Shown in pieces: positions 2,361-63,731 of a stretch of DNA of 64,000 nt. Below the pieces are notes generated by a model, which saw only the letters and a list, made by a program, of their open reading frames with translations, ran no database searches and had not been told where the DNA came from. The translations under genes and the position numbers were made by a program. Position 1 is the first letter of the stretch. Each line of letters opens with the position of its first letter. Origin of the DNA: Elsinoe ampelina (lineage: Eukaryota); the NCBI GenBank assembly GCA_010093995.1, contig ML992503.1:1863328-1927327 (forward strand). The letters run 5' to 3'.

Positions 2361-5300
2361 CTACCCAAGCGTCACCAAATCCCTCACCCCCCTCACCGTC
2401 AACGAAATCGGCACACACCCCTCCACCACGCCCCCAGTGACAACATGCTGCAACCCCTCTTCCTGCAAGAAGAACAAATCATCCACATCCCCCCTCACCA
2501 ACAGCACCTTGAACCCTCCCCCGCCATTATACACACAGACCACCGGCAAGAAAAACTCCTCCACCGTGTTCACAGCCGTCAACACGGTGGTCCCATTATA
2601 CCCCATCGGCACCCACGACACCATCCTCGCCCCCCTCGGCACGGCGTTCATAGGCGCCAGACGAAGCCGCGACGCCCCGTAAGCATCCATCAGATCAGGG
2701 AAGTAGAGAAATATCCGATCCGAGGTGTCGAAGGTGACGAAGCCGGCGTCGAGCACGAAGTTCGCCGGCGGGTCGGACGGGGTGTAGTTCGCCGTCAAGT
2801 ACAGGTTCCCGTCTGCGCCGGGGCTGAGGAGGAATTTCCCCGTCACGTCGGTGATGGGGATGTTCCGGGGTGCTTCATCGCGACGACGCAACGGCGCCGG
2901 GGGACGATTCGTCGGCGGGTCGAGGGAGCGTTTCTGCTTCGGCGCAGTGAGCAGCACGGCCGAGTCGACGGTGAAATCGTACGTGCTTGAATCCGTCTTC
3001 GCCGAGGCGCGCGTCTGCGTCTTGAGCGCGCACCACGGCGCCGAGGCGTAGCGGCCCCCGTGGACCCACGAGACGCCGGCGCAGCCGCTTTCGGCGTCGC
3101 AGAGCTGTTGGCAGGCGAGGAAGGAGGGGGTGGAAAAGTCGTGCCGGAGGTCGTCGCCGCGGTAGTCGATGCCGCATTCGATGCGGTAGGCGCCGCCGGT
3201 TTGGGGCTGGAAGACGGTGGCGTTGGCGGTGGGGCAGTCGGTGAAGGAGCGGGAGGGGCGGGCGGCGAGGACGGTGAGGCCCGAGGGGGCGACGGCGCCG
3301 GCGTCGTAGGAGGATTTGAGGTAGCAGTATTGTGCTGCCTGGCCTGCGGGGACCCAGATGACGACGCGGCAGTCGAAGCCCCAGTCGCTGCAGGCGTTGA
3401 CGCAGGCGGTCATGTTGGGTGTTGTGAGGACTTTCAGGAGTGGGCCGGAGTAGTCGGTTTGGCAGTCGACGTTCCATTGTCGCTTGTCCGTAGTGGTGTA
3501 GTTGCTGCCACAAGTCAAGACCGTAGGGCTCGGTATGGATGAACTGCTTGTGGTGCTTGTAGTACTTGTGGTGCTTGTAGTGCTTGTGGTACTTGTAGTG
3601 CTTGTGGTGCCTGTAGTGCTTGTAGTGCTTGTGGTACTCGTCATTGTTGTGTCTATCGTCGTCATTGATAGCGTTGTCGTCGACGATGTTATGGACGTTG
3701 TCTCCGTGTTGGTCGTGGTCTCGGATGTTGATGTTGCAGTCGACCTTGATGCCGTGCTAGTCATTGGAGCAGTCATGGTTGCCGCAATGGTTGAAGTCGT
3801 TGACGAGGCTATGGAGGCCGTCGTGGTTGTCGTGGTTGTGGTTGTCGCTCTAGTACTACTTGTCGTCGTCGTCGTTCGCACTATTGACAGGGTAGTGGTG
3901 GCTCTCTTGGTTGTCTTGAAGATGTTAGGAAGTACAATCTTTCTTTTGGTCGTTGTAGGTTCCGGAGCTGGCAAGCCAGGGTTGGTCGAGTCCTTCCCAC
4001 CAATGCAGCCACTGATCAGAGTCTTCTCCCAATGCCACAACACGACCTGCTTGATGTTGAAGTAATCGGCCAGCGAGTCCATATAAGGACCTACTCCGTA
4101 CGTGACACCGCCAGCGCACTCGGAATTCTTCTTGGTACCATCCGTGGAGACATCCAAGATGGTATATGCAAATCGAGCTTGCACTCCAGGTGAGAAAGTC
4201 AGGGATGCCTGCTTCTCGATGAGTCCGGCGAACATGGAAATGCCAAAAGCTAGTTCGACTGGTAGACCGAATTGAAGCTCGAGAAAGATTTCGGCATAAG
4301 CTTCTATTTTCTTGTCCAATCTGGGAGTCCAGCCATAGGAATATGAGCTGTCTGGGTTCAGGAGATCTACGTATGTCCGAGCCTTTGGAAAGCCTGTGGG
4401 ATGTCAGATGACCTATATCAGTGAACAGGTAGAGTACTTACCCCACGAGAACCCTGCCAATGCCTGTCCCTGGATACCAATCGCTACCTGACCTCTGACA
4501 TTGACACTGAATTCAGGACCGATGGTCCCAATACCGGGAATGGAGCAGGATGGCAGGCCAGCGCTGAAGACCTTGTAATTCTTCGTGTACTCGAGCTTGG
4601 CGAATGCGTTGACGCCAAGATACATGCTGACATTCAGTCTGCCTCCCATTTCAAAGGTGGCTTTTTTGAGCCCTTCGGCTTTACTGTAAGCCACGTTGGC
4701 GGTAAAGTCGAAATGAGATTTGATACCGCAGTCGACGCAGTAGACCTGTACACCGACTACGACCTCTGTACTGCTCTTCGTCTTGCCTTCTAGCTTCTTG
4801 TTGTCGGCCTCAGCCTCTGTCTTGGTCTTTGAATCTGTCGGTCCCCATGCAAAGATCAAGAACTGGCGACCCCATGGAGACACTGCTGTTCCCGGAAGCA
4901 TGTATGTCATGTCAAAGTCAATCCCATGTTTGCCGTCCTGGCTAGCAGGGGCATTCGCTACAGCAGATGCTTGGTTGTAGGACTGTTTGACGCTACTTGG
5001 GACAGCCTTGGAAGCAGTGTCTTTCACAGCATTTGTAGTCGTCCCGATAGGGTCTTGAACGAAGCTGACGAAGCCACCCCAGCCTCGTGCGAGCAGTCGC
5101 TTCTTTGATTGGGACAGGGTCGGAGCGATCTGTCCATACAGATCAGGTAAGTCGTCCTCTCCACTGGGATAGTATCCTAGCTTATCGTCCAGTGTCTTAT
5201 CGAAAGAAGGCCCGCATGGTGCTGTTGGGAAAGACAACGTGGCGTTCGCGGGCAGATCTGCGCAGGCAGGAATAGCCAAGGTGGTGTTTGCACCAGCATC

Positions 5301-6473
5301 GCCAAAGCTCATAACTACTTCATCTATGACGTCGACCATTCCTTTGATAGAACCAGAAGCCTGGACTGTCATGCTAGAGTCGCTGAACGTGAAACCCGTG
5401 GTGAGAAATGGTGAGCTCTCGTCTGAAGCTCCGCAAGATGGGGCTGACGTCAGGAGAATGACTTGGGTATTTGATCTCCAGGCGCTTTTGGCATATTGGT
5501 ATGCTTTGTCAGAGTTGTACTGGATTGACATGACTGAGCCGGCGCACGTCACTGAGGAGATATAGACTGTGTGATCCAGCGCTACGGACTGATACAAGAA
5601 CGCAGCAGAGACAGCTGCTACTGTCGTATTTGCGTCATCGCCAGCTTTTCCTGCGAAGAAGAGAGATTGATTCTGTGTTGGTGAGAGATTGTCTAGGCTG
5701 GTGAGGTCCAGGCCCGGGGGTGGCATGGCTGCAAGAGTCGCTGTAGGTGCAGGTTCTCCGGTGACTGGCGTGGGCGTCTGATAGTTGCCTTGAAATTCCA
5801 CAGGGGTACTGGTGGAGGCTTCTTCTGTTGTGGATGTCGAAGTCGAAGTGAAGACCCCATCGCGGATTGTTACTGATAAGCTCGACGGCAATATCGTTAC
5901 TTGTGACGATATTATGCCGCTTGAGACCTGTCGTCTACTTGTTCTGGTGGCGGAAGTGCTCCTCGAGGGCGAAGTTGTGATACTGGTCCTAGGACTGACG
6001 ATAGCTGGATTTGCTACCACCTTCTTGCACACCTGCGTAAGTTGTTTGGCTCCAAGATTATAAATGGGACTGTCTCCTCTTTTCTTCCTGGTCCAGAAAT
6101 GACAGAATGTGACTGGATCTGCAACAGACTTCTGCAGTGTGGTCAGGCCTCTCACTGCACTCTGGCCCGTGGGTCTCGTGATGATCTTTGTTTTGGTAGG
6201 ACCTAATAAGCTGGGCTTAGTGTTGATGCATCTGCAGGCCTTCACGATGTCGGCTGCAGCGATTCCTTTGAAAGGACTGTTCCGTCGACTGTTAGAGTTG
6301 TACCACTTGCAGAAATCGCCTGGTGCGCCGACAGTCTGGCGCAGGGTGAGAATTGTAGCATCTTGTGGTTGGCATGCTACCTTGGAAGTAAGCTTTGCCG
6401 CTGAAGTAATATCTATAACGAAGAGAAGTAGGAGCAACCATACCCACTGGATGTGGCCTTTGGTGACTTCCAT
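2361..6473 (-). CDS. Large secreted multidomain protein (~1354 aa): signal peptide, duplicated Cys module, Ser/Thr linkers, two apple/PAN-like domains
   Basis: Two ORFs join in frame via intron 4394-4441 (GTAAGT...CTGAC...CAG): 2032+2033 nt = 1355 codons. Hydrophobic N-terminus. Two C..DY.G...C...C....C..V.W...C.LK apple-type repeats. Confidence 0.85.
3545..3640. repeat. Coding 9-bp tandem repeat (about 10 imperfect units, encodes (TST)n on the minus strand)
   Basis: Units such as GTGCTTGTA/GTGCTTGTG/GTACTTGTG are repeated. Confidence 0.9.
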
Positions 6474-7590: not shown

Positions 7591-9386
7591 ATGGCCATCT
7601 TGAGGCCTCTTTTCTTGTCCGTCGCCGCTTTGGCAGGCCTAGTCACTGGTCAAAATACCTCAGAACCCATCGTTGATCTCGGATATGGACAATTCCGCGG
7701 AACAGTGAACAACACCGTCCGCACTACCACCTACTTTGGTCTTCGCTATGCACAGCCTCCAGTGGGGGAGCTGAGATTTCGCGCTCCACGACCAATCGAG
7801 AGGAGCAATTACTACAACGCTGGCAATGTCACCGATGCCACTCGTCTGGGCCCTCAGTGTATTCAAGGTAATCACCGCGCGCGTCCTTGTTGCCACCAGT
7901 CTAACGTTGTGCTAGGCACCCCAGGCTTTAGCCTCAGTAACTCGACGCCCACCATTCAGCCTGGCATTGAAGACTGTTTGCTCCTTGACGTTCTCGTCCC
8001 AAATTCCCCTGTCTCATCGAGCCTGCCTGTGCTCGTTCAAATACATGGAGGAGGATACGCTCTCGGCTCTGCAGAGACATACCCGGGATACGCACTGGTC
8101 AATCAATCTCAAGCCATCATTTACGTCACCATCCAGTACCGACTGAACGCCTTTGGCTTCTTGAGCAGTGTGGAGGTCCGTGAGAACGGGGACGCCAATG
8201 CGGGCCTACTTGACCAACGTGCCGCTCTCAATTGGGTCGAGCGCAACATTCGGGCGTTCGGTGGTGATCCAACCAAGATTACTATCATCGGAGGCAGTGC
8301 GGGAGGCGGCAGTGTAATGAACCAGATGATTCTCTACGGTGGTGACGATAGTCCACCCTTTCGAGCCGCCATCTCCGAGTATCCTTGGTGTAAGTCCTAT
8401 TGAACGACAAAGATGTTCTGCCACTGACTTTCGACAGGGCAGCCATACCACAATGACACAATTCTTGGTGACCAATATCGTCAGGTTTTGACTGCATCCA
8501 ACTGCACAGACCTCAACTGTCTTCGGTCCATCTCCTCTGACGATCTCAATGCAGCCTCGCAAGCAGCGCTGAGAGTAGGCTACACCTCGAATCCCAAGTA
8601 TTACGGCTATGGCGACTTCTACTACGGCCCCGCAGTGGACGGAGATGCCATTCGCGATCTCCCTTCGAACGAGTTCAAGCTCGGTCACTTCACCAAGGTC
8701 CCACTGCTGGTCGACCATGACGGCTACGAAGGTACATTCCATCCCCATCCCACTCTGACCAACCTAACCCTCCCAGGCGTGACCTTTTCCAACCGCTCCG
8801 TCACCAGCGAAGCCGAAGCCGAGATCGATCTGCAATCCCTCTTCCCCTACGCCAAACCCTCCTTCTTCACCCGCCTCTTCGACCTCTACCCCTCCTCCGC
8901 CTTCAACAGCACCTTCTTCCAACGCCAACAACTCTTCGGCGACTTCATCATCAGTACGCCCCCTCCCCTCCCCTCCCCTCCCTCCCTCCCCACTAACCTC
9001 CACCCTCCCCAGACTGCCCAACCTACTACATGTCCACCGCCACCTCGGACCTCTCCATCCCCACCTGGAAACTCACCTTCAACGCGGGCACCCAACTCCA
9101 CGGCGCCACCGTCCCGTTCCTATTCAGCACCAACGCCTCGGCCATCAACAACGCCACGTTGGCGTACATCATGAAGGATTGGTTCACGAGTTTCACGGTG
9201 CACCTCGATCCGAACGCCGAGAGCTGGACGGGGGAGAGGAAGCCGTATTGGCCTCGGTATCAGGAGGTGGTGGATGAGTACAGGGTTATGAGTGTGAATT
9301 ATACGGAGGTGGGAGCGGTGGCGGATGCAGATGCGTCGGCGCAGTGTGATTTTTTCCATGGGCAGAGTTATGTTGTTAGGAATTAA
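7591..9386 (+). CDS. Secreted type-B carboxylesterase/lipase (alpha/beta hydrolase)
   Basis: Signal peptide, motifs EDCLLLDV, IHGGG, GGSAG (nucleophile Ser), DGYEG and LHGA. Introns 7868-7915, 8390-8437, 8732-8776 and 8954-9012 restore the frame. Confidence 0.92.
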
Positions 9387-9982
9387 TGTGGGGATGTTGG
9401 GGTGGGTGTGGTCGAGGAGGGACAGGAATTGTGAGCCGGTTGTGGTCGGCGCGCCAGCGAGTGGCAGAGGTGAGGTGGTTGCCAAGCTGGAATGAGGGTG
9501 TGGGATAGGCGCCAGACCACAATGAAATTAGATGTACCCAGATGGGAATGTGCTGAACGGAAGCGGAAAGTGATCGTGGACCGGCGTGTTTCGTTATAGG
9601 GATACGGTGCAGGGTCGGGAGACGAGTGTGCAAGTGTGTTTCACCAATATCAGACCCTGCATGATGAGTGAGATTTGACCGGGTCTGGCGGCTCCATGGA
9701 CCTCGGGTAATGAGTAAGAAAGTGATGGTACGAGAGCAGAATTAGGCGTTGGCACTGCTGGATGGGTGGTCTTGCACCACGAGCTGAGGCGTCATGACTG
9801 GCATGACATTGCGAAGACATACATTGTAGGTAGGTAACATTTGTCCATTTGAAGGAAGGTGGATATCGAGTACAGACATTAATTATGCTTGCTCAAACGC
9901 ACAATCGCAGACACTTTTTTAACCATGCTCCCTATCATATGTACTCTCGTACAATATGAGGTGGAGTATCCCTTTCCCTCAT

Positions 9983-13749: not shown

Positions 13750-14034
13750 TGCACACATCTCGCATCCTGCTCACACTGTTACCAACAACACCGCATCATC
13801 CTTAGTCAGATGTGAGAAGTTTCATCACCTCCCAAGGCTGCAATCGGTCCTTCCTATGTGGCATTGAATCCGGTACAGGCCTGCTTCCATGACCTGAGCG
13901 GCATCGCATTTCGGCGTTTGGCCGAAGCCTTCGGCGTTCGTCCGTCTTCGGGTCACATTTTCTCGAGCCAATTGATGAAGGGCATCAAAACCACTTGCCT
14001 CAACATCAATTGACATTCAGCACTTCAATCCACC

Positions 14035-15114
14035 ATGTCTGAACAACCACAACGAATCGGCACCATCCTGCCCGCCGACGCCAAGCAATTCGCCACCGAC
14101 ATCCTCACCGGCAACGGCCTCTCCCCGACCGACGCCTCCACCGTCGCCTCGTGCCTCATCGCCGCCGACCTCCGCGGCGTCGACACCCACGGCATCAACC
14201 GGCTCCCGTCCTACATGACACGAGTCCGCAAAGGCCTCAACTCCCCCACCGCCCAACCCGTCCTGACCCAAATCACGCCCGCCGTCGCCCTCGTGGACGC
14301 CAACAACGCCTTCGGCTTCATCGGCGCCAAACTCGGCATGGCCCGCGCCATCGAAATGGCACAGACGTTCGGCATCGGCATGGTCTCGATCAAACACTCG
14401 AACCACTTCGGCATGTCGGCGTGGCTGGTGCAGCAGGCCATCGACGCGGACATGATGAGTCTCGTGTTCACGAACTCGTCGCCCGCGTTGCCCGTGTGGG
14501 GAGGGAGGAGTAAACTCATGGGCGTGAGTCCCATCGCGTGCGGAGCGCCTGGCGAGCATCCGTTCATCCTGGATATGGCGCCGTCGGTGGCGGCGAGGGG
14601 CAAGATCTACAAGGCCAAGAGGCGCGGGGAGAAGATTCCTTTGGATTGGGCGCTGGATGGGGAGGGGAGGCAGACGGATGATCCGGGGAAGGCGTTGGAG
14701 GGGGTGATGCTGCCGATGGGTGGGCCGAAGGGGTCGGGGTTGGCGGTCATGATGGATGTGTTTTCTGGGGTGTTGTCCGGGTCGGCGTTCGCGGGGGGTG
14801 TGACGGGCCCGTATGACTTTTCGAAACCGGCGGATGTGGGGCATTTTCTTGTGGCGATCAAGCCGGATTTGTTCATGTCGATGGCGGAGTTTAAGGAGAG
14901 GATGGAGGAGTTGTATGGGAAGGTGGTGGGGTCGGAGAAGATGCAGGGCGTGGATAGGATTTACTTCCCGGGGGAGATTGAGCAGTTGACGCAGAAGAAG
15001 AGGGAGGTGGAGGGGATTCCATTCGTGGAGGCGGAGATTGAGGCGCTGAATGAGGAGGCGAGAGCGGTGGGGGTGCCGGAGCTGAAGGTCAAGTCGTGGG
15101 AGACGAAGGCGTGA
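14035..15114 (+). CDS. Malate/L-lactate dehydrogenase type 2 (Ldh2/AllD/YiaK) family oxidoreductase
   Basis: Intronless 359 aa; motifs ADLRGVDTHG, SNHFG, LDMA.S, GGPKGSGLA, YFPGE. Confidence 0.92.
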   Translation: MSEQPQRIGTILPADAKQFATDILTGNGLSPTDASTVASCLIAADLRGVDTHGINRLPSYMTRVRKGLNSPTAQPVLTQITPAVALVDANNAFGFIGAKLGMARAIEMAQTFGIGMVSIKHSNHFGMSAWLVQQAIDADMMSLVFTNSSPALPVWGGRSKLMGVSPIACGAPGEHPFILDMAPSVAARGKIYKAKRRGEKIPLDWALDGEGRQTDDPGKALEGVMLPMGGPKGSGLAVMMDVFSGVLSGSAFAGGVTGPYDFSKPADVGHFLVAIKPDLFMSMAEFKERMEELYGKVVGSEKMQGVDRIYFPGEIEQLTQKKREVEGIPFVEAEIEALNEEARAVGVPELKVKSWETKA

Positions 15115-15220
15115 GATCTCTTGTGAGTATCTGTATCAAATACTCATATCTACATACTAGGTGGATGATATCATGGCCTTTTGATGTGCCACTTTACTCT
15201 CTGTGCTTGCACCAATCCCG

Positions 15221-15760
15221 CTAGAACACTGTCGCTCCTCCATCCACTACCAGATCCGCTCCATTGATGTACGATCCCGCAGTACTACACAACATGACAA
15301 CGGGTCCCGCCACTTCCCACGGTTGCGCCATCCTACCCATCGGATTCCTCCCTGCCCAAATATCTCTACATCTCTGTAGTCCCTCTCCGGCGTTCAGAAT
15401 CGTGTCGGCATATCCCGGCGACACGGAATTGACTCTGATCCCATGCACCGCCCACTCGGCCGCAAGACAATGTACGAGATGAATCACTGCTGCTTTACTC
15501 ACGTTGTAAGCTGCTTGAGGCTGTGGATAATTCACTCGATGTCCGGACATGCTGGCTACGAGGACGATACTACCACCTGACCCGTGGGATTTGATGTGTC
15601 GTGCAACAGCTTGTGAGGCATTGAAGGCGCCAGACGTGTTTACGGAGAGTACGCGAGACCATTCTTCCGCGGATACATCCATGGCAGGGACGCAGGAGAC
15701 CACACCAGCGAAGTGGGCAAGGTGGCGGATCGGGCCAAGTAGTTGGAGGAAAGTGCGGCC
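15221..15760 (-). pseudogene. 5'-truncated short-chain dehydrogenase (D-arabinitol 2-dehydrogenase-like)
   Basis: Has FAGVV, ASMSG, YNVSK and VDGG. The frame hits TAA at ~15800 with no ATG and no TGxxxGIG Rossmann motif, and no upstream exon was found. Confidence 0.65.
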
Positions 15761-15837
15761 AGCACGAATTAAAACGCATCTTCTGGTGAAGAAGAAAGAT
15801 TAACAAAACATCTCACATCCACCCAGAACCATCCACC

Positions 15838-16215
15838 ATGGTGCCACCCATCACAGATCTCGAATTCTTGAAAGGTCTCTGGCTCGAAGCTCACGCAACG
15901 ACCCAATCCAAGCGAGCTGCGATTAGGCACGCAACACGCATCAGCAACGAGATGGCAAGCAGAATGTCCGTCGCTACCTCATCCACTCAAGATCATTCCG
16001 ACAAAGCCTTTGAGGAGAATAAAAAGGAGATCGCAAAGCTCAGGAGCGAGCTTGACGCTGCTGAAGCATGGGAGGCACAACTCAAGAAGGATGTCGAAAG
16101 TGGGTATCCAGTGGCTTCAAGGTTGGACAGACTGACACATCGCAGGTATGGGTGGTACTGTCGGTTGAGGTCTTGGAGCTACGGCTCACACAGAAGCATG
16201 AGAGTGGAGTGGTGA
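15838..16215 (+). CDS. Small hypothetical coiled-coil protein (possible intron 16100-16145, giving a stop at ~16168)
   Basis: Good Kozak context (CCACCATGG), helical charged sequence, CTGAC...CAG branch/acceptor. No family recognised. Confidence 0.4.
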   Translation: MVPPITDLEFLKGLWLEAHATTQSKRAAIRHATRISNEMASRMSVATSSTQDHSDKAFEENKKEIAKLRSELDAAEAWEAQLKKDVESGYPVASRLDRLTHRRYGWYCRLRSWSYGSHRSMRVEW

Positions 16216-19601: not shown

Positions 19602-19632
19602 TACGCCAGGACAAAGAATATCTCACTCGATT

Positions 19633-20457: not shown

Positions 20458-20591
20458 GTTGGGCGGCTTGATGGGATTAGGATTGGTTGGTAGTGGAGTT
20501 GGAGAATTGTAGAGATGGTATTATCACCTGCAAGGATTGGGGATATATTGTGTATTGATATGGGCAACTGCTTGGGAAATTTCAATAGCCG

Positions 20592-46166: not shown

Positions 46167-46480
46167 AATGGCGATCAAGGCAGAGACCAGAAGAAGTGAG
46201 TTTGCACCATTCATGTGAAGTGAAATTGAGCTGACCCGACACAAGCAAAGGTGCAAAGCACGGTGTGAGGGAGGAACAGGATAGGGCGCATAGCGAGGTG
46301 CATGGCGCTGGATGGTGGATTCAAAATGGGTTTCTCGGGCAAGATGCCTTCTTCCTCTCACATCAGAGATTGGCAAGGAAATAGCAGAGGTCAAATACCT
46401 CACCGGCTCAAGCAGCGGTCAATCAATCCGATCGCTAGCATCAGAGTCATAATAAAATCGTGCCTCCACTTCCGTCCATC

Positions 46481-47281
46481 CTATTGCACCTTCTTGACGT
46501 CGCCCGCCGCAAATTCCAACCCTTGCAGAATCTCTGCGCCAAACACATATGTCAAGTAAATCGGTATCACGATCCAAGGCGCACTATTCACCAGTCAGCA
46601 CCTTCCCTCCTTCCTGATATATCATACTCACTTGGGCAACACCCACAACGTCACCAACGTCCACGCATCATTATGCCCAATATTATCAAACCCACTATAC
46701 GCCTCATTCAACCAATACAAGACCGTCTTACTCCACGTCATGACCGTGACGGCAAACCCCAACAAACACGCCACCCCCGCCCAATAACCCGTGACCCTCA
46801 TCGCCCTCCCCAACCCCCCAACCTTATCCGTCCCCGGCGCCCCCCTGCCCTCGACCTCACTCTGCCTCCCCTTCGTGTACACGATCCACAGATACACCAA
46901 ATACCCAACCGTCTCGACGATGTTCAACGTGCCCTGCGCCGCCGTGAAGCCATTGTTTTCGTTCCACGCTTTGAAGCCGTAGACTTGGTCCACGCGCCCG
47001 TACAGCTCGTAGGGCTGCCATGGCCAGTGGTATTTCCCGCCGGGCATCGAGTGGGGGCGCAGCATCACGTAGCCGCAATCCCAGATCACGAGGGGGAGGG
47101 AGATGCCCAGCCAGATGAGGGTGAGGTTGGACGGGGTGTGTGACCAGACGGAGTTGGTGGAGGTGGGTTTGCGGCGCGTCACGGTGGTGGAGGCTGAGGG
47201 GGTGGGGGTGACGCTGCGTTGTTTTGAGGGCGAGGAGGTGGGGGAGGGGAAGTTGGAGGGGTGCGAGCGGGTGGAGACCAT
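46481..47281 (-). CDS. Integral membrane protein, EXPERA/emopamil-binding-like
   Basis: Motifs VIWDCGYVMLRPHSM, YGRVDQVYG, KTVLYW, LWVLPNAPWIV. Intron 46584-46631. Confidence 0.8.
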
Positions 47282-47671
47282 GGTGTCGGCTGTTGGTGGT
47301 GAGAGTGATGGGTGGTGGGTGGTGTGTGGACGAAAGAAGGAGGGAAAGCTGGGGTGGTGGTGGTTTATGGAGTCGCCGGTGGTGCGTTAGGGCCGGGTTC
47401 AGGGCATTTTGTCGCGCGTCACGACGTTCGGGAAGAAGAGGTCCCGTCTGCTTTGGTTTCCATTGATCTCCAATTCCTCATTCGAGACCCCACCAGCCAC
47501 CTGTATCGAGCATTTTGACGACTCAATTGAACGTTAAGCAAAAGTATGCAACACCTTAATTGAAGAGAGCACATTCCGATGAGGTGATCGACCCTCACAT
47601 GATGAGAGGTTGATTCTGCGCATACAGGTCGTTCTCGCGGTGGACAATCTCCGATGTCCAATCAGTGAACA

Positions 47672-49618
47672 ATGTCAAGATCTTTCCCTTACGCATACAT
47701 CTCTTGTCCCTGCGATCAAGATCCGGAATTCCCGGCAGCCACAGCACATGTCAGACGATCATCAGTCTTGCCTATATTGGCAGACGACGAGGATGAAGCA
47801 GACAAGACCTTGAATCCTCACGATGAGAGGTCGAGCTTCTCCCTGTACCCATACGACCAATTACTCTACTGCGATGAATGTCATCAAATTCGCTGTCCAA
47901 GGTGCTGGGCAGAAGAGAACACGCACTGGTACTGCCCGAGCTGTCTGTTCGAAATACCAAGTAGTCTTGTCAAGTCCGACGGAAACAGGTAAGGTGAGCC
48001 AGTGCCCTCGAGATGCGAAAAGCCTTGTCTCTGACAATCATCCAGATGTACAAGGAACTGCTTCAGCTGTCCATTATGCACAGCACCATTATCAATCAAT
48101 GCACTGGATCAGCAAAGCAGGCAGAGCTCAGGTGACACCACTGGTCCAAGTGGTCCTTTCTTTCTAGCATGTCCAGTTTGCGACTGGTCTTCTCTTGATG
48201 CTGGCATCGAGTTCAGCAAGCCTAACAAGATCTATGAACAGCTTTTGCGCATGCGACGGCCGAAAAAGGCTCGACTGGAAGACGACATGCCCGACCGAGA
48301 TGTCAGAGAGGAGACGCCAGGACCAGAGGTTGCGGAGACGACCGACCTCGACCTGCTGGACCACAAGTTCTCGAAGTTGCTCAAATTCTACAAGACGCAG
48401 CTGGCAGAGTCGGACACAGCTGTCAACAATCCTCTTGGACTGGACGCATCGTACTCGTCACCATCAAATCTCGCCCGAATCATGCAGCTGTATGGCGGTC
48501 TCTCAGCAGCTTCACTCAAAAAGGCCAAGGAAAAGCCACAACCGATGCGTGAAGCCCTTACTGCACCAGAAGGACTTACATTGACCATCTCGGAAGAGGC
48601 AATCGTCAGGCAGATACGCGACTCCCCCGACTCCATACCAACCGAGGCCCACCATCAAGCCCATCCATGGAACTCGACTGCCACAGATATCTCCTCACTC
48701 TGGCCCGTTCCCACCCTGCTCGCCACCCGCAAGTCCAAACGCTGCCGCTCATGCCGCCACATTCTCATCCGCCACGACGAACGTAAGCCCACAACCAACA
48801 GCTCCTCGCACAGCGCCTCCACCTCCATCGCCACGTCTCTCAAATACAAAATCCGCCTCCTCGCGCAATCCTTCATCCCCCTCCTCTCCCTCCGCCCCTT
48901 CACCCCCTCTCACCCAGCCACAACCCCTCTCCCCCGCGCCTCCTTCGCCCTGACCACCACCGCCCTCCAAACCCTCCGCGACACAGAAGGCCCCATCCCC
49001 CCTCTCCGCCCAGGCCAAAAGCGAGACTACCTCCTCCTAATCCAAAACCCCCTCTTCGAAACCGTCCGTGTCAACCTAGCCACCCCGGCCATCACGCCAG
49101 GCAAAGTCGAAAGCAGAGTCACCATTCTCTGCCCCAGCTTCGAAATCGGCGCCGACGGAGACGTCTGGGACGCCGCGCTGAGCGACACCACGGGTGGGAC
49201 GGGGAGGACTGGGCGGGGGGAGCGCAAGGGGAGGGAGTTGCTCGGTGGGAGCGGGATGCAAGGCACCAAGGACAAGGATGGGGAGGACCGTGTGCCGGAA
49301 GCGGGGAAGGTGTGGGAGCGAGGGAGGAATTGGGTTGGGGTGGTGGTGGAGGTTGTCCCGGGGAGTTTACCTGTCAAAGAAGAGGAAGGGGAGGGGGAGG
49401 ATGAGGATGAGGATGAGGACTATGATTCGTATCTGCAGAGGGAGAAGAAGGGTAGGATGGACAGGACGGTGAACGATGATGTGTTGGAGATACCGGTGTT
49501 TGTGAGAGCGGAGTGGGATGCGGACGTCGCTGGCGAGGAAGGAGGGGCAAAGGGGCAGAAGGAAAAGAGGGAGGTGGCGTTTTGGTGTGTGCTTGGGGCG
49601 GGAAGGATAGTGCCTTGA
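47672..49618 (+). CDS. Dynactin p62 subunit (DCTN4/RO-2)
   Basis: Motifs LLYCDECHQIRCPRC, YCPSCLFE, RCTRNCFSCP, KSKRCRSCRHIL. Intron 47989-48045. Confidence 0.92.
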
Positions 49619-49809
49619 CGGACAACCAGACACGACCCTGCTCTTGAACAAGCATCGCAAGGAAGTCTGGCAAAGTAGCAGAGCCATGAGGCAAGATAAG
49701 AGGAGAATACCATTTCCCGCATCCTATCCTATCTCTACGCCGGCTCTATACCATGCAACCCCCAAACTCATAGATATATACAATGCCCCGCCTCCCCCCT
49801 TTTCCGTCA

Positions 49810-52560
49810 TCACAACCTCGCCTCCCCCTCCCCCTTGAAAATCGTCGGCGCAGGACTCGGCTCTCCCCCACCCGGCAACACAGGCGGATCCTTCTTCTCC
49901 GGCTCAGGCGGTATCGAGCTCCCATGCCCCTCTCGATCCCCCTTGCTGCCATTGAAATACTTGCTGAACTCCGCCTTGTCGGGGAACGGTCTCGGGCCGA
50001 GCAGCCTGATCATGTCGTCGCGGCTCAGCATTTCCTTCTTGAGCAACTCCTCCGCCACGATGCCGACTTCCTTCTTCTTCTCGCTCAGTAGGTCTTTGCA
50101 TTGCTGGTATGCCTCGTCGACGATGCGGCGGACTTCGGCGTCGATGTCGCGCGCGGTTTCTTCGGAGAAAGGCTTGTGGAGTTGTTGTTGTGCGTCGTCT
50201 TCATAGTACCGGTAGCCGATCTTCGGGCTCATACCCCATTTCGTGACCATGGCGGTGGCCATGCGGGTGACTTTGTTGAAATCGTCCGACGCGCCCGAGG
50301 TGACAGTCGGGAAGTGGAGTTCTTCGCTGACGCGTCCGCCGAGGGTCATGGCCATTCGGTCCATAATTTGGTTGGCGGAGAGGAGGTAGGTGTCGCCCGC
50401 GGGGAGGTATTGGGCGTAGCCGAGGGCGCCGGAGCCGCGGGGAATGATGGAGACTTTCAGGAGGGGATCGGCCCATTGAAAGTACCAGCCGCAGATGGCG
50501 TGGCCGGCTTCGTGGTAGGCGACGGTGCGCTTCTCTTCTGGTGAGAGGACGAGAGACTTCTTCTCGAGACCGCCAATGACTCGCTCAATGGCTTGCTCGA
50601 AATGTTCCATCAGAACGGAAGAGGCGTTACCACGGGCAGCTGCAAAGCGTTAGTAGTCATTCGAGACGCCATCGTAAAGTGTGTACTGACCGACAAGAGC
50701 CGCTTCGTTAACACAGTTGGCAATGTCTGCTCCCGAGAAACCTGGGGTGAGGGCAGCCAGACGTCCTTCCAGATAGTCGGTGTCAACATGAGTCACAATC
50801 TTTTTAAGATGTACCTTGAAGATCTGTCTTCGACCGTCCATGGTTGGTGGATCGATGGCAATGTGTCTGTCGAATCGCCCTGGTCGCATGAGAGCCTTGT
50901 CAAGGACATCGGATCGATTGGTACCAGCCAGCACTACCACCTGTTCAGACGTGTTGAAACCATCCATCTCCGTCAAGATCTGGTTGAGTGTTGCTTCTCG
51001 TTCGTCGTTGCCGCCACCAAAGTTCTGCTTTGACCTCGACTTTCCGATAGCATCAATCTCATCAATGAAGATGATGCATGGTGTGTTCTTTCTCGCGTTC
51101 TGGAAAAGATCTCGCACTCTCGAAGCACCTACACCGACAAACATCTCCACGAACTCGGAACCAGATACCGAGAAGAAGGGAACTCCAGACTCTCCAGCTG
51201 TAGCCTTTGCGAGAAGCGTCTTACCAGTGCCGGGCGGTCCAGAAAGAATGGCGCCTCGAGGAATCTTTGCACCGAGCTTCTGGTACATGCCGGGATCCTT
51301 TAGAAAGCTGACAAACTCCATAATCTCTAGCTTTGCTTCGTCCATGCCAGCGACATCCGCGAACTTGACCTTAACATCGGTTTCGTGATTGAACTTCTTC
51401 GCCCTGCTGCGGCCCATGCCGAAGATGCCTCCAGCCTGTCCACCACCTCCTGAAGCCGCTCTTCTTGACATCCAGAGTAAAACACCGATGAAGAGAATGG
51501 TGGGTCCGAAGCTGAGTACTGTCTCTACCCATGGTACTTCGCGAGCGTATTGGACTGGTATCCGCTCCGAGCTTGGTACACCAAGTTCTGCTTGTGCCTC
51601 ATCCACCTTCCTTTCAAAAGCCTCGACCGAACCGATTGTAAAGTAGTAGTAGAAGTTCTGTTGGGCAGCCGGTGACTCGGGGTACATTGATGCCACAGCC
51701 TCGCGATGTAGGTGTACTCGGACCCGACTATTGTTCAGCACCACGAGCTTCTCCACAAGTCCTTTGTCGAAGAAGGTATTCCTGAATTCTTGCCATGTGA
51801 TCTCACGCGAGTTCTCTGTCGGCATGAATAGTCGGTACAAGAGATATGCTGTGAAACCAGACATCAGGAAACTGCTGAGATCAAGTTTGAATTCCATCAC
51901 GTTCGGTGCGCCTTGCTTCGATTTGCCCTTCTTTCCTCCAGCTGAAGATGGACCTGGATCGTCGGATGACTTCTGCTCTGCCTGACCTGGCTTTGCTTTG
52001 TTGCCGAATCGTTCCTCTGCGGCTTGTTCGGCATACTTGCGTGCCATCTGAGAAGTCAGTCGCCACAACTTTGCAGCCATGGCCGGCGTCACGGTGCCGG
52101 TCTGCATCTCATGGACAGTCTTTCGGAGCTCCTCGGGTATGCCATGGGCTTTCATGTCCTTGATGACCTTTTCAATGTCCTGCGCCATGGATGCCGGCAT
52201 TCCCTTCTTCACGAACTGGAGGACTTCCTCGAGGCGGGCCTGCTCCTTTTCGCTGAGCTTCACGTATCCAGTCTTCAGCTCGCCCTTCTTCCCACTAGTA
52301 GCTTGACTCTTTGATATCGGGCTGGAGTCACCGTAGAGGTGCTCCATGCCAGGTGCCTGCTTGCCATCCTTGCCGTCGACCTTCTTCTGATTTTTTGGCT
52401 CCTCTGGTGGCTGTGTTGCGTACCGTCGAACTATCTGCCTGTTGTACACATGTCTTGGGATGAGTGGCGGTCTTAGCGAAGGGTTCCGAGCTCTACAGGC
52501 AAGTTGTAAATTGCTGGATAGTCTTGTGGCCTGAGCGGTCTGCCGGAGCAGGCGCGTCAT
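49810..52560 (-). CDS. yta12: Mitochondrial m-AAA protease subunit (Yta12/Afg3 family)
   Basis: Walker A GPPGTGKT, Walker B FIDEID, HEAGH zinc motif, two TM segments. Intron 50640-50690. Yta12 versus Afg3 is not resolved. Confidence 0.93.
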
Positions 52561-56698: not shown

Positions 56699-57399
56699 TC
56701 AATCGCTATCACTCGCCGGACCTCCATCATCACTGTCGTCCTGCACCACATCATCTCCTGCCGCTATTGTGAACTCTGCCTTCTGTAACGACTTCCTCAA
56801 CTCGGTATTTCTCGGGTCGACAAGATCGAAAGGCTTCAGCTTCGCTTTGTTTCGTATTCTGCTCCCATTAGCACCTCTTCCCCATCTGTCCAATGCTGTA
56901 CCGTGCTCCTCTGCCCAACCAAATCCTCAAAGCACTCGCCAGTCGGCTCCGGCCTTCCCACGTCCGCAAGTCACTCACCTCGGATCACACCCCGCGTCCA
57001 GCAGGATCTCCACCACCCTCCCATCCTCCTCCCAAGCCTCCTTCCCCTGCTCATTCACCCACCTGACCGCCTTGTGCAAACACGTATCCCCCTCCCTCTT
57101 CTCCTGGCCGTCAATCTCCACTCCCTCCTGGTCCAGTAACACGTCTAGCACTTCGTAACTACCGTACTGTGCGGCAATGTGCAGTGCCGAGCAGCCTAGA
57201 CCGTCGGTAGAGGTGTTGAGGAAGTGGGCGATCTTGTCTGCGGAGGCAAAGGAGGAGAGGACGGACGTCAGGAGGGAGCTGTTGTTGCGTCGGCAGGATT
57301 CGAGGAGGAGTTCGCGAGGGGAGGCACCCTGGACTTTGGTCAGTGAAATGTATGGGCTGAGGGAGGGGTTGGTAGTGGAGGGGATACCTCATCTGACAT
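56699..57399 (-). CDS. Small ankyrin-repeat protein
   Basis: Reconstructed MSDE|GASPRELLLESCRRNN...ALHIAAQYG...GDTCLHKAV...LLDAGCDPR|IRNKAKLKP. Introns 57329-57387 and 56859-56978. Confidence 0.85.
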
Positions 57400-57859
57400 G
57401 GTCGCGGTGGTGTAGGCAGCAGGTTGTGGTAGTGCGGAAGAGAGGGACCAGCAATTGGAAATTGAAGTGATAGTCCTGAACGAAGGTTGCGAGGGCGGAC
57501 AATGGTCGGAAGGAATAGCGAAGCTCAATGATTAAGGGATGTGGTATTTCTAGCAGAGGAACGAAAGGAAGTAAAGCGCTTCTAGATTGCAGGACGGGTC
57601 TACGCGGCTCTACATGCGGCTCGAGTCAGGGACGGCGAACTGTATGGTTGGCAATCGCAAAATGGTCTTCACTCTTCTCGAACAGTCATTCTTGACAAAG
57701 ATTAAACCTTTTCTGAAATTTATTAAAGGAACCTGTTGTGACAAGACTCCATTACTGACATCACGATCTCGTCCGAAATTTTCAGCCTCATACGACCATA
57801 ATTTGAGGTCCAAGCGGGGACAGATATCTCATCTACTTTACTGCAGGCCTTGGGAAATC

Positions 57860-62145: not shown

Positions 62146-62603
62146 ATAGAAGACAGATTGGATATTATGAAAAGCTGAGTGGCAAGCCTCGTATCATCAA
62201 AGATGCATCGTGTGAAGTGCATTGCTTCGACCACTCGTTGGGCCGATAGTCTGGTACATCTGTTCTCGATCCGCGGTGCAGCCGCATATGCTCGAGCGTG
62301 ACACCCTGCTGCCCAACATGATCGTCTGGACCTTAAACAGATATGTTTGTTGTTGGAAGAAAGGATTAGACCACATGAAGGGTGCCGCCGAACAAAGAGG
62401 CTAGAGTATCACAGCCAATCACAGCACGTTCTGTCTCGCCCGGACCGATCATCCGCCGAGCAACGACATCATCGGAAAACAGTCCAAGCCGCCAGGTTGT
62501 TGAAGGTACTACTATTATTCACAAATTCCCACAGCTCTACTACAAGGATACCTCACTTTCCAACACCACTCTTCCACACTCGCAAACGAATACAGAACTC
62601 ACA

Positions 62604-63731
62604 ATGCCACCACCACTCCAAATCTCCATCCCAACGACCCACACCTCCCCGTCACCCTCCCCTCACACAGTCTACAACATAACCCTCACCCTCCCCCTCC
62701 GCTCCCACATCCTCCAAAAACGCTACTCCGACTTCCTCACCCTCCACAGCACCCTCACCTCCGAAACCAAACTCGCCCCACCCCTCACCCCACCCCCGAA
62801 ATCCTGGCTGCGCTCCACCGTCTCCTCCCCCGACCTCGTCGAGACCCGGCGGCGCTCCCTCGAATCCTACCTCCGCGCCATCCTCGACGCAGACGACTCA
62901 CGATGGCGCCAATCCGCAGCATGGCGCACCTTCCTCTCCCTGCCCGCGAACCTAGTCGCAAAACCCGCCTCCTCCTCCTCCTCCTCCACCGCCGCCGCGG
63001 CTGCTCCAGGCCCAGACGCCCTCGACGCCAACGCCTGGCTCGCGCTCCACCGCGAGATCAAGTCTCGCATCCACGAAGCCCGTCTCGCGCTGCGCCAGAG
63101 GGAACAGGCTTCCACGACGACAGAGCAGCATGCCGCCGCGGCGGAGGTCAAGGCCGCGCTGGTCAAGGCCGCGACGGGCATCGCGCGGTGCGAGGGCGCG
63201 CTCAAGACGCTGGCCGACGGGGATAGTTGGGGCGGCGGCCTGGGCGACGGTGAGGTCCGGCGGCGGCGGGATTTGCTGGTTGCGGCGCGGAAAGAGGTCG
63301 AGGGGCTGGAGACGCAGTTGCGGGGATTGGCGGTCAAGAGCCTGGGGCCGGGAGGGGAGATGGGGAGCGCGGTGGCGAGTGGGGCGGATAAGAAGGGGTT
63401 GTGGGAGGGGACTGCGGTGGCCTCGGGAGGGGCGGGGCAAGGGAAGGGGCCCATCAAGACTGGACGGGTGTTGGGAGCGCATAAGGAGACGGAACGCACG
63501 AGGGAGTTGGACAATAAGCAGGTGTTGCAGTTGCAGAAGGATGTGATGGTGGAGCAGGAGCAGGATGTGTTGGAGATTGGAAAGGCGGTGAGTCGGATGA
63601 AGGAGATGGGGATATTGATCAATGAGGAGCTGGTGGTGCAGAATCAGATGCTGGGCATGTTGGAGGGGGATGTGGATCGGGTGCAGGGCAAGTTGGACGT
63701 GGGGAAAAAAAGGATCGCGAAGATCCATTGA
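62604..63731 (+). CDS. vam7: Vacuolar SNARE with PX and Qc-SNARE domains
   Basis: PX motifs (HTVYNI, KRYSDF, PPK, RRRSLESYL); C-terminal RVLG...ETERTRELDN SNARE helix with no TM segment. Confidence 0.9.
   Translation: MPPPLQISIPTTHTSPSPSPHTVYNITLTLPLRSHILQKRYSDFLTLHSTLTSETKLAPPLTPPPKSWLRSTVSSPDLVETRRRSLESYLRAILDADDSRWRQSAAWRTFLSLPANLVAKPASSSSSSTAAAAAPGPDALDANAWLALHREIKSRIHEARLALRQREQASTTTEQHAAAAEVKAALVKAATGIARCEGALKTLADGDSWGGGLGDGEVRRRRDLLVAARKEVEGLETQLRGLAVKSLGPGGEMGSAVASGADKKGLWEGTAVASGGAGQGKGPIKTGRVLGAHKETERTRELDNKQVLQLQKDVMVEQEQDVLEIGKAVSRMKEMGILINEELVVQNQMLGMLEGDVDRVQGKLDVGKKRIAKIH

Follow-up and report, generated by a model that had tools for sequence, protein, structure and literature searches.

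An on/off form of fungal intragenic GC skew at the 3' ends of genes in Elsinoe ampelina

The strand asymmetries of transcription and replication include jumps in GC skew at origins and at CpG-island promoters. They are weak (a few percent), run over many kilobases and are centred on promoters or origins, and the upward jump at origins is established both in bacteria and in human skew domains. The nearest description of the domains reported here is the intragenic fungal skew of McLean and Tirosh (2011, PMC3315797), in which a C bias of the coding strand early in the gene gives way to a G bias late in it, with the skew extending into UTRs and affecting both fourfold sites and amino acids. As characterized there, it consists of modest whole-gene average gradients with flat AT skew, and its C bias is tied to the promoter or gene start. 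A preliminary description of the present DNA knew of no named feature class for its domains; these skews, of opposite sign at the two ends (5' and 3') of fungal genes, supply a description. Intense, abrupt third-position skews in functional coding DNA are also reported for GRINS (2021, PMC8256042), mostly in bacterial polyketide synthase genes. GRINS are duplicated by definition (over 80% identity), are linked to gene conversion and show strongly correlated GC and TA skews. In humans, Ginno et al. (2013, PMC3787257) found terminal G skew, together with R-loops, where genes are closely spaced. That skew, as they present it, lies mostly around or after the poly(A) site, has no upstream C-rich arm and is enriched in tandem arrangements.

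The window analysed here is a stretch of 64,000 nucleotides from E. ampelina contig ML992503.1, with a GC content of 54%. The preliminary description had listed fourteen GC-rich segments that run from C-rich to G-rich on the + strand. An unsupervised three-state HMM, run over the whole window with those coordinates left out, recovered thirteen of the fourteen places as CA-to-GT pairs, mostly with edges tens of bases or less from the listed ones. The fourteenth (49730-50560) is weaker and drew no HMM call, yet is confirmed by codon third positions. Domains have 58-66% GC, compared with 52% elsewhere in the window. By fixed thresholds there are eleven C-to-G and three G-to-C switches. When 400-bp blocks were shuffled 200 times and flipped at random, C-to-G switches averaged 3.7 (maximum 10) and G-to-C switches 4.2 (maximum 9), so the C-to-G switches are real. 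All three G-to-C flips (15116, 39778 and 49613) occur where two genes adjoin by their 3' ends.

The segments were said to be C/A-rich and almost G-free, then G/T-rich and almost C-free, around a CpG-rich centre. For G and C this stands, as GC skew changes sign in 14 of 14 domains. For A and T over all sites it does not: TA skew has the stated sign in only eight of fourteen left arms and nine of fourteen right arms, its correlation with GC skew is r = 0.31, and the A/T component is clear only at synonymous sites. The near-absence of G was overstated, with G in C-arms at 10-22% of all sites, 11% of fourfold sites and 5% of intron sites. CpG density does peak at the centres, with 11.2 per 100 nt compared with 5.9 outside the domains, but the observed/expected ratio is flat over the domain (1.09-1.15); the peak is arithmetic, since C and G are about equal there.

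The domains and the genes that they occupy are as follows, with the basis of each assignment in brackets.

D1: 2359..3844, minus strand; PAN-domain gene, 3'-terminal part (ORF 2364-4403, probably joined to 4416-6485); coding-strand third positions pass from 92% C to 65% G, and the stop codon is 2 nt from the edge (HMM; Pfam PAN_4).
D2: 8732..9638, plus strand; carboxylesterase gene, last two introns (both nearly G-free), last two exons and 3' flank; stop 9384-9386, with G-richness running on to about 9800 by sliding skew (Pfam COesterase; HMM).
D3: 14021..15115, plus strand; entire Ldh_2 family gene (ATG 14035, stop 15112-15114); third positions pass from 82% C to 80% G (Pfam match 4-332 of 333).
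D4: 19649..20661, minus strand; entire short-chain dehydrogenase gene (19636-20520) and 5' leader (Pfam adh_short_C2; third positions; HMM).
D5: 27013..27473, plus strand; ribosomal protein S7 gene, final intron and exon and the beginning of the 3'UTR; stop 27435-27437; the shortest domain (Pfam Ribosomal_S7e; HMM).
D6: 27946..28788, minus strand; GFO/IDH/MocA-type oxidoreductase gene, penultimate exon and the intron upstream, followed by a 76-nt intron and a 260-nt last exon (sequence by eye; Pfam; HMM).
D7: 29617..30671, plus strand; entire DHDPS-family gene (Pfam DHDPS 3-288 of 289; third positions; HMM).
D8: 38697..39797, plus strand; GH3 beta-glucosidase gene, final 1.0 kb and about 100 nt of 3'UTR; onset in the coding sequence is abrupt, T-ending codons dropping from 38% to 0% (Pfam; third positions; HMM; RNA contigs).
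D9: 39798..41001, minus strand; entire methyltransferase gene (stop 39911-39913) and about 110 nt of 3'UTR; adjoins D8 tail to tail (Pfam; third positions; HMM).
D10: 46463..47404, minus strand; entire small gene without a Pfam match, and 5' leader; ATG near 47282, intron 46584-46631, stop near 46480; no other domain lies in a tandem arrangement (spliced RNA contigs; HMM).
D11: 48622..49612, plus strand; dynactin p62 gene, final 1.0 kb (stop 49616-49618) (Pfam; third positions; HMM).
D12: 49700..50600, minus strand; FtsH/AAA-M41 protease gene, terminal exon plus some 110 nt of 3'UTR; final intron 50640-50690, stop codon 49810-49812; the weakest domain (Pfam; third positions; RNA contigs; no HMM call).
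D13: 56703..57513, minus strand; entire small ankyrin-repeat gene with two introns, C-rich in the C-arm and G-rich in the G-arm (RNA contig joints 56858/56979 and 57327/57387).
D14: 62528..63731, plus strand; PX-domain gene, from about codon 50 to the stop codon (Pfam; third positions; HMM).
Unlisted weaker domain: 15221..16100, minus strand; second short-chain dehydrogenase gene (third-position GC skew -0.63, then +0.40).

The preliminary description held the domains to be independent of gene orientation and of position, falling in 5', middle or 3' parts of genes. It is true that the polarity reads the same on both strands, and independence of orientation is therefore uninformative. Independence of position is contradicted: 13 of 14 domains have their G-rich edge between -210 and +300 nt from a stop codon of matching orientation, compared with 3.2 on average and 10 at most over 20,000 random placements. 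The sole unanchored domain, D6, is a penultimate exon. Each domain is the final 0.5-1.5 kb or so of a transcription unit, or the entire unit if this is short, in which case it runs from the 5' leader through the 3'UTR. About fourteen strong and at least three weaker domains were found among 28 genes with a placed stop codon. Most domain-free genes show a mild shift to G in the last 100 codons, so that the genes form a continuum.

The C-then-G polarity had been offered as the footprint of bidirectional origins of replication, whose leading strands would be G/T-rich to either side, and like origin and bidirectional-promoter asymmetries the domains change sign around a fixed point with this polarity, that of the upward jump at origins. 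They are centred, however, on the last kilobase of a gene, with stop codons as their anchors. Domains occur once per 4.6 kb of the window, the centres lie inside expressed exons, the skew reaches only about 0.5 kb to either side and stops at transcription-unit edges rather than continuing to a terminus, and no motif common to the domain centres was found. Origins are thus a highly improbable source.

Domains gather where genes converge. With well-supported gene models, eleven of twenty convergent 3' ends carry a domain compared with one of eight tandem ends (P = 0.088); with all models the counts are 13/23 and 1/11 (P = 0.011). At the packed convergent ends that bear domains, stop codons are 32-215 nt apart. 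RNA-derived contigs (four runs from three studies, unstranded) cover the domains at 99% identity or more and are spliced, and at two convergent pairs they extend beyond the stop codon towards or into the neighbour (to 39895, and to 49391-49516). Several convergent genes in the window have no domain. One reading is that domains are selected termination insulators, G-rich gene ends with G-rich antisense further in promoting R-loop-assisted termination, which would keep polymerases from entering a neighbour only 30-200 nt away. The tight convergent spacing fits, as do the human genes, where terminal G skew goes with close spacing of genes and is found together with R-loops (PMC3787257), and a maximal use of G with avoidance of C would reproduce the codon choices, among them T in preference to C at twofold sites. 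Selected G4 elements, which had also been suggested, and selected G clusters gain no support beyond composition: runs of three or more G (147, against 145.9 in synonymous-codon shuffles) and G4-like starts (10, against 8.9) are not in excess. Many equally crowded convergent genes do without a domain, the human enrichment is reported at tandem rather than convergent pairs (PMC3787257), and kilobase-scale recoding with amino-acid drift is a high price for a terminator. We consider insulators distinctly unlikely.

The composition of the arms bears on selection more generally. At fourfold sites, C-arms have A.08, C.76, G.11 and T.04, and G-arms A.05, C.14, G.70 and T.11, compared with A.22, C.35, G.16 and T.27 outside domains. 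C at twofold pyrimidine sites is.94 in C-arms,.33 in G-arms and.63 outside, and G at twofold purine sites is.33,.93 and.67, respectively. Synonymous-site GC rises from about 51% outside to about 85% in domains. The two arms therefore mirror each other, even against the genome's own codon preference. Introns follow their arm, with C.54 and G.05 in the C-arms (n = 5) and G.43 and C.13 in the G-arms (n = 2), against C.26 and G.22 in ten introns outside domains; the skew includes UTR-scale flanks as well, as the preliminary description had it. Because introns share the skew of their arm, codon selection is not the cause, and the claim that ordinary codon bias cannot explain the domains is borne out. 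Selection on the protein is not the cause either. Intron skew and mirror-image arms make a strand-asymmetric process at the level of the nucleic acid the natural reading.

Selection on the mRNA, either for pairing of a C/A-rich half with a G/U-rich half or for position-specific codon use in translation, could draw on the 44-87% of predicted base pairs that link one arm to the other and on the domain edges that coincide with a stop codon. Yet fold-back beyond composition was absent in six of six domains compared with within-arm shuffles (|z| < 2; eight shuffles each), folding was no better than in fully mixed shuffles either, the skew is present in introns, which are absent from the mRNA, and the mirror symmetry overrides preferred codons. 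This reading is largely refuted and its chance of being right is minimal; the selected fold-back elements proposed earlier likewise find no support beyond composition.

Amino-acid use in the Ldh_2 gene tracks the skew (Gly/Val/Cys/Trp versus Pro/Thr/His/Gln), a drift also described for GRINS (PMC8256042); in the GH3 C-arm the drift runs opposite to the skew. A GRINS-like process, perhaps the same as in bacterial genes, might thus act on single-copy fungal genes. The intense, abrupt skews, their third-position maximum and the spill-over into Ldh_2 amino-acid use would suit it, and the GRINS account mentions single-copy skewed regions and eukaryotic cases along with such traits (PMC8256042). The domains differ in lying in single-copy, unrelated genes: the window showed no self-similarity, the sole match between domains being 26 nt, and the repeats that define GRINS are missing. 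TA coupling is weak (r = 0.31, against 0.70 in GRINS; PMC8256042), and the fixed polarity and regular gene-end anchoring do not figure in the description of GRINS that we drew on. We regard this as improbable.

Intragenic recombination or break-repair hotspots deserve more weight, although we still think them unlikely. Recurrent breaks near the centre would be followed by resection, with re-synthesis errors and GC-biased conversion; the re-synthesised strand would gain G:T-type misincorporations on each side, leaving C on the left, G on the right and a high GC3. By our own derivation such errors would give the observed polarity (T-to-C with G-to-A to the left of the centre, A-to-G with C-to-T to its right). 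The two-sided domains with equally intense mirror arms, the scale of about 1 kb, the rise in synonymous GC and the restriction to a subset of genes all fit. Damage to the exposed resected strand, the better-documented signature of breaks, would give the opposite polarity, though. A break-centred tract has no reason to follow stop codons or transcription-unit ends, the centres share no motif, and outer edges that can be sharp around a gradual centre are the reverse of what a fixed break with variable tracts would leave. In another Dothideomycete 1435 of 2578 hotspots are exonic, but GC-biased conversion is called 'extremely weak or absent' in Zymoseptoria (PMC5844332).

The explanation that we tentatively put first, at somewhat less than an even chance, is a gene-end 5'-C/3'-G skew from transcription-linked, strand-asymmetric mutation and repair bias, to which antisense or convergent transcription probably adds. 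Non-template-strand exposure and preferential repair of the template strand have been reviewed (PMC12139591). Near the 3' end the non-template strand would be exposed in the transcription bubble, by pausing or in R-loops and, being repaired less well than the template, would drift to G and lose C. The G-arm at the gene end would stem from sense transcription, and the mirror-image C-arm further in would be written by polymerases running the opposite way, either from antisense initiation at the 3' end or by read-through from a close convergent neighbour. R-loop involvement is possible; G-rich non-template DNA favours R-loops, and the state could be self-reinforcing, from which the on/off pattern would follow. 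The stop-codon anchoring, the intron skew, the spliced RNA contigs with their extension beyond stop codons, the tendency towards convergent ends, the continuum with domain-free genes and the skew in relatives all speak for this explanation.

Some observations sit less easily with a transcriptional cause. The arms are near-equal in intensity across genes that probably differ widely in expression, which comes more easily from a single two-sided DNA process than from two independent transcripts. The GH3 C-arm begins abruptly at 38697, 1.0 kb from the stop codon and without a visible signal, an abrupt mid-gene onset that transcription alone does not predict. Convergence is not sufficient, given the domain-free convergent genes here and the weak skew of most convergent Ldh_2 relatives. 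Simple deamination (C-to-T and A-to-G) cannot account for fourfold sites at which G far exceeds T, and transversions to G are therefore needed; abasic sites copied with C are a proposed source. In non-coding parts of G-arms A equals or exceeds T, a misfit with a pure deamination signature. The reversed amino-acid drift of the GH3 C-arm also counts against this cause.

In relatives, 24 of 25 fungal Ldh_2 loci (from metagenomes, several of them redundant) have a GC skew that rises from the first 40% of the gene to the last 40%, by 0.5 or more in nine of the 25; in five bacterial homologues the first-versus-last difference is at most 0.11. Both of the two interpretable skew switches in relatives lie near gene 3' ends. 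Skew is weak in seven of nine Ldh_2 relatives with a convergent downstream gene and in both of the two with a tandem one.

Like the human terminal skew, the domains concern a subset of genes of no particular functional class, with a G-rich coding strand at the end and close neighbours; R-loops were measured in the human case (PMC3787257), and the domains are known from sequence. With the fungal intragenic skew of PMC3315797 they share polarity, reach into UTRs, fourfold sites and amino-acid use, presence in many but not all genes and a strength that varies by species. Unlike that skew as described, they are discrete blocks of about 1 kb, near-saturated (76% C, then 70% G at fourfold sites), with raised GC3, an A/T choice that flips at synonymous sites, introns included and an on/off pattern. 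In long genes the C-arm lies mid-gene, 0.5-1 kb from the stop codon and far from the gene start, so the arms act as one paired gene-end unit. The domains carry the 5'-C/3'-G intragenic GC skew of fungal genes to an extreme and in an on/off form, and in about four in ten genes here the last kilobase is made of nearly all C-ending, then G-ending codons.

The window has a GC content of 54%, and sliding windows show many adjoining C-rich then G-rich stretches along it. We segmented the whole window with a three-state HMM (background, C-rich, and G-rich), which recovered C-rich/G-rich pairs with closely matching edges at 13 of the 14 places that a preliminary description had listed as skew switches. 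The 14th (49730-50560) is weaker and is supported by codon third positions. Each of these ~1-kb GC-rich segments, here called domains (D1-D14), has a C-rich arm (C-arm) followed by a G-rich arm (G-arm) on the coding strand, and the order is C then G in 14/14. With fixed thresholds, the window contains 11 flips from C to G and 3 from G to C. Across 200 shuffles of 400-bp blocks in random orientation, C-to-G flips averaged 3.7 (maximum 10) and G-to-C flips 4.2 (maximum 9), which confirms the polarised excess. The G-to-C flips (at 15116, 39778, and 49613) are meeting points of the 3′ ends of two genes. The observation of skew switches is real and striking.

Pfam scans of all open frames identified single full-length genes spanning both arms.

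Pfam-supported genes that span both arms of a domain
14035-15111, + strand, Ldh_2 gene (Pfam profile positions 4-332 of 333)
19636-20520, - strand, short-chain dehydrogenase gene
29601-30668, + strand, DHDPS-family gene

The G-arm's outer edge falls within a range from 210 nt upstream to 300 nt downstream of a stop codon of matching orientation in 13 of the 14 domains (edge-to-stop distances 2, 252, 1, -16, 36, -203, 101, 113, 17, -6, 80, -159, and -27 nt). When 14 domains were placed at random (20,000 trials), a mean of 3.2 were anchored in this way, with a maximum of 10. In short genes the domain takes in the whole gene, extending from the 5′ leader into the first part of the 3′UTR: Ldh_2 (D3), short-chain dehydrogenase (D4), DHDPS-family (D7), methyltransferase (D9), a small gene without a Pfam match (D10), and ankyrin-repeat (D13). 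Within long genes (GH3 beta-glucosidase, dynactin p62, FtsH protease, PAN, carboxylesterase, and PX), the domain is confined to the last 0.75-1.5 kb, and the coding sequence upstream of it has ordinary codon use. The transition is abrupt in GH3, where the share of T-ending codons drops at about 38697 from 38% to 0%, and is spread over 240-360 nt in the dynactin, FtsH, and PAN genes. The exception to anchoring is D6, which by eye covers the penultimate exon and the preceding intron of a GFO/IDH/MocA-type oxidoreductase and is followed by a 76-nt intron and a 260-nt last exon. The switches had been described as independent of gene orientation and as falling in 5′, middle, or 3′ gene parts. The first point is automatically true and carries no information, because the pattern is its own reverse complement; the second is contradicted by the 13 domains that end near a stop codon. 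The skew domains are a gene-end phenomenon with a published relative and not a new class of origin-like sites.

Some domain edges also fall near introns. The upstream edge lies at or beside an intron in the carboxylesterase (8732), RPS7 (27013), GFO-type oxidoreductase (28788), and FtsH (50640-50690) genes, and in the first three of these the adjoining intron is itself already skewed. At the GH3 onset (38693-38701), the in-frame 9-mer GTGAGACAG resembles a 5′ splice site joined directly to a 3′ splice site and may be due to chance or be the trace of a lost intron. The GH3 protein appears to align without gaps to the Aspergillus beta-glucosidase.

The composition of the arms was examined at codon third positions in 10 genes, which change on the coding strand from 70-92% C to 60-80% G, whichever strand carries the gene. 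Fourfold sites have A.08, C.76, G.11, and T.04 in C-arms, A.05, C.14, G.70, and T.11 in G-arms, and A.22, C.35, G.16, and T.27 outside domains. At twofold pyrimidine sites the C fraction is.94 in C-arms,.33 in G-arms, and.63 outside, while at twofold purine sites the G fraction is.33,.93, and.67, respectively. The two arms are complementary mirror images. T-ending codons outnumber C-ending ones in G-arms and A-ending codons outnumber G-ending ones in C-arms, both opposing the genome's own preference. Non-coding DNA carries the skew as well: introns have C.54 and G.05 in C-arms (n = 5) and G.43 and C.13 in G-arms (n = 2), compared with C.26 and G.22 outside domains (n = 10). Several intron coordinates are accurate only to 1-3 nt, which does not affect these compositions, and the introns of D10, D12 (FtsH), and D13 are supported by spliced RNA-derived contigs. 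The 3′UTRs of the GH3, methyltransferase, carboxylesterase, and FtsH genes are skewed, as are 5′ leaders. Codon selection is an unlikely cause, as the mirror-image arms override the genome's codon preference and introns follow their arm. The process acts on DNA or pre-mRNA regardless of coding, is mirror-symmetric, and is delimited by transcription-unit structure.

Two further features of the preliminary description hold in part. It had given the switches as C/A then G/T. The G/C component flips in 14/14, and the choice between A and T flips at twofold sites (67% A in C-arms, 67% T in G-arms). Over all sites, TA skew is weak and has the described sign in only 8/14 left arms and 9/14 right arms, and A is not depleted relative to T in the non-coding parts of domains. 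This inconsistency makes G versus C the primary variable; the change from A to T arises mostly from the structure of the genetic code at synonymous sites. A CpG-rich centre had also been described, and CpG density is indeed higher at centres (11.2 per 100 nt, vs 5.9 outside). Since the observed/expected ratio is flat across the domain (1.09-1.15), this peak is arithmetic, and a CpG island at the centre is ruled out.

The skew extends to amino acids. The C-arm of Ldh_2 is shifted to Pro/Thr/His/Gln, with only 5/119 orthologues as extreme, and its G-arm to Gly/Val/Cys/Trp, with 3/119 as extreme. The amino acids of the GH3 C-arm are shifted the opposite way (3/120), and those of its G-arm mildly in the expected direction. 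Drift at the protein level therefore depends on the gene; judged by first and second codon positions, it is strongest in weakly constrained proteins such as dynactin, PX, and the methyltransferase.

Several sequence elements had been proposed or could be envisaged as the basis of the domains. A selected fold-back structure is unlikely: in six domains the real sequences fold no better than within-arm shuffles (MFE z from -1.9 to +1.6, only eight shuffles each), and the order of the arms brings no gain over fully mixed shuffles, so that this candidate was rejected within the limits of small shuffle numbers. Selection for G4 elements is similarly improbable, with G runs (147 runs of at least 3 in 3.4 kb) and G4-like motifs showing no excess over synonymous-codon shuffles. 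A search for a motif at the switch points found the top 6-, 7-, and 8-mers in 9, 7, and 4 of the 14 centres, within shuffle expectation (95th percentiles 10, 7, and 4). A blastn search of the window against itself returned 0 non-self matches, and the domains share only a 26-nt match with one another, which tells against repeats or mobile elements as the source. The ~1-kb scale and 3′ anchoring suggested cDNA-mediated conversion from the mRNA 3′ end, which we rejected because the domains retain introns that are themselves skewed. Deamination of an exposed strand, acting by itself, was discarded on the grounds that G lies far above T at fourfold sites.

The domains are expressed. RNA-derived contigs from four runs in three studies, without strand or depth resolution, cover them at at least 99% identity, so their sequence is real and transcribed. 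Among well-supported gene models, domains occur at 11/20 convergent and 1/8 tandem gene ends (P = 0.088), and among all models at 13/23 and 1/11 (P = 0.011). As several of the gene models have no support beyond an open frame, the enrichment at convergent ends is no more than suggestive. Stop codons of convergent neighbours are 32-215 nt apart, and at two convergent pairs unstranded RNA contigs overrun the stops by 200-420 nt, approaching or entering the neighbouring gene (GH3, 39697-39895; FtsH, 49810 to 49391-49516). This suggests overlapping 3′ ends at both pairs, though contigs that bridge two genes need not represent a single transcript. Most domain-free genes show a mild rise in third-position G over the last 100 codons, and three show half-domains; genes form a continuum with a saturated upper class.

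We infer that the cause is a transcription-linked strand asymmetry. The non-template strand would be exposed and damaged and the template strand preferentially repaired, processes covered in a review (PMC12139591). Polymerase dwelling near the 3′ end would make the effect strongest there, with sense polymerases writing the G-arm and antisense or read-through polymerases writing the C-arm. R-loops could make the asymmetry self-reinforcing. The shift to G as well as to T requires transversions, for which abasic sites copied with C are a candidate route. Rev1 copies abasic sites in this manner. The main rival is a two-sided process of repair synthesis or recombination centred in the domain, which accounts better than the transcription model for the symmetry of the arms and the rise in GC3 and leaves the anchoring at stop codons unexplained. 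Replication origins had also been considered, and the sign change from C to G at a point (14/14) resembles the skew jump at an origin. However, the skew does not run on to a next terminus regardless of gene ends; it dies out within 0.2-1.1 kb, where a stop codon or the edge of a transcription unit lies, and origins are unlikely. A further possibility, which we regard as speculative and rather improbable, is that the arms form one paired unit, produced at gene ends by a two-sided self-reinforcing process (perhaps runaway R-loops on the two strands of a sense/antisense pair, or recurrent rounds of repair synthesis near a break inside the gene). Such a process would toggle genes between 'off' and saturated 'on' states and recode the last kilobase, including introns and some amino acids.

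A 5′-C/3′-G polarity is described as an average property of fungal genes by McLean and Tirosh (2011; PMC3315797). There the skew reaches UTRs and is seen at fourfold sites and in amino-acid use; C bias goes with the promoter and gene start, with intermediate skew in the gene body and roughly uniform AT skew, and the cause is left unknown. Our domains resemble that skew in being C early and G late on the coding strand (from 76% C to 70% G at fourfold sites) and in including 3′UTRs, 5′ leaders, and fourfold sites. They differ from that account in their near-saturated amplitude, in forming discrete blocks with raised GC3 and skewed introns, and in the onset of the C-arm, 0.75-1.5 kb from the stop in the GH3, dynactin p62, FtsH, and PAN genes. 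The C-arm of long genes is paired with the G-arm 0.5-1 kb from the stop and is not at the gene start; for this reason the 'initiation-phase' idea of that study cannot explain it.

The domains also share features with GRINS, defined in PMC8256042 by a length of more than 500 bp, mean |GC skew| and |TA skew| above 0.15, a duplicate of over 80% DNA identity in the same locus, and a strong GC-TA skew correlation (r about 0.7). Intense third-position skew and amino-acid drift are common to both, 13/14 domains are longer than 500 bp, and mean |GC skew| and |TA skew| inside domains (150-nt windows) are 0.39 and 0.16, the latter barely above the threshold. Unlike GRINS as defined there, the domains have no such duplicate within the window, and GC-TA coupling is weak (r = 0.31 inside domains and -0.13 outside). 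Taken alone, the G-arm resembles the G skew reported, together with R-loops, at the ends of closely spaced human genes (Ginno et al. 2013; PMC3787257). Co-oriented 3′-end G skew and close neighbours (stops 32-215 nt apart here) are shared with those elements; RNA:DNA hybrids were mapped at the human genes. The openly accessible literature on Elsinoe, on fungal GC/TA skew and gene conversion, and that quoting the title of the 2011 study yielded no account of discrete domains like these, and the paired, saturated, on/off form of gene-end skew appears to be previously undescribed.

We also looked at relatives. The window is fungal, and its Ldh_2 and GH3 proteins share 87% and 91% identity with proteins of Elsinoe fawcettii, with other Myriangiales as next-best matches, which points to an Elsinoe-like Dothideomycete. 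Our comparison set comprised 80 loci with Ldh_2 homologues from metagenome contigs, of which 25 fungal loci, several of them redundant copies from the same organisms, were analysed. In 24/25 of these (several redundant), GC skew rises from the first 40% of the gene to the last 40%, and the difference is at least 0.5 in nine. Among bacterial homologues (n = 5) it is at most 0.11. Switches differ by contig group, with almost none in 12-18 kb in one and 3 in 21 kb in another, and skew strength is lineage-specific. By downstream gene, nine Ldh_2 relatives are convergent (two strong, from one lineage) and two tandem (both weak); neighbour orientation does not predict strength here, though with so few strong cases the comparison says little. 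Two of the eight switches in relatives are interpretable, each near the 3′ end of a Pfam-supported gene (245-350 nt away); the other six have no Pfam-supported gene. Two of the metagenome contigs (L005 and L007) have Ldh_2 genes with identical skew and third-position figures. Downstream of each lies a RING-finger gene, opposite in strand to Ldh_2 in one contig and co-oriented in the other, which reflects either a local inversion or two separate loci.

Long open frames lie antisense to several real genes, with which they share third codon positions.

Long antisense open frames
14017-15135, - strand, antisense to the Ldh_2 gene
19582-20493, + strand, antisense to a real gene
29661-30761, - strand, antisense to a real gene
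38455-39798, - strand, antisense to a real gene
44433-46166, + strand, 577 codons, opposite a - strand gene with a spliced RNA contig

Such frames arise as a side effect of C3/G3-rich coding and could be annotated as genes in error. Elsewhere in the window, an AT-rich block (1-800, 28% GC) adjoins gene-dense DNA of 52-54% GC and looks like a degraded-repeat, RIP-type isochore, of a kind common in Dothideomycetes. On the - strand, a tandem 18-nt repeat (3520-3650) encodes a Thr/Ser-rich linker in the PAN-domain gene and lies a short way upstream of the skew domain there. On the same strand, 13 nt with a stop codon (4404-4415) separate a 690-codon DUF7029/DUF7223 frame from a 680-codon PAN frame; rather than two genes, these are probably a single one of more than 4 kb whose frame is broken by a short intron or by an error in the assembly.

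The skew distorts measures of codon usage and GC3, shifts the amino-acid composition of weakly constrained proteins, and could mislead tests for selection or horizontal transfer. If the arms were indeed a single paired unit, the process behind them would be the equivalent, in single-copy eukaryotic genes, of the unexplained intense skews of bacterial GRINS. The cause of the fungal 5′-C/3′-G skew has been open since 2011, with just three other papers quoting the title phrase of that year's study in the literature searched, and its near-saturated, gene-by-gene form in this fungus makes the question directly testable. Because the skew is present or absent gene by gene, neighbouring genes serve as built-in controls for stranded RNA, polymerase-occupancy, RNA:DNA-hybrid, and recombination maps, and the domains are thus a good system for finding the cause.
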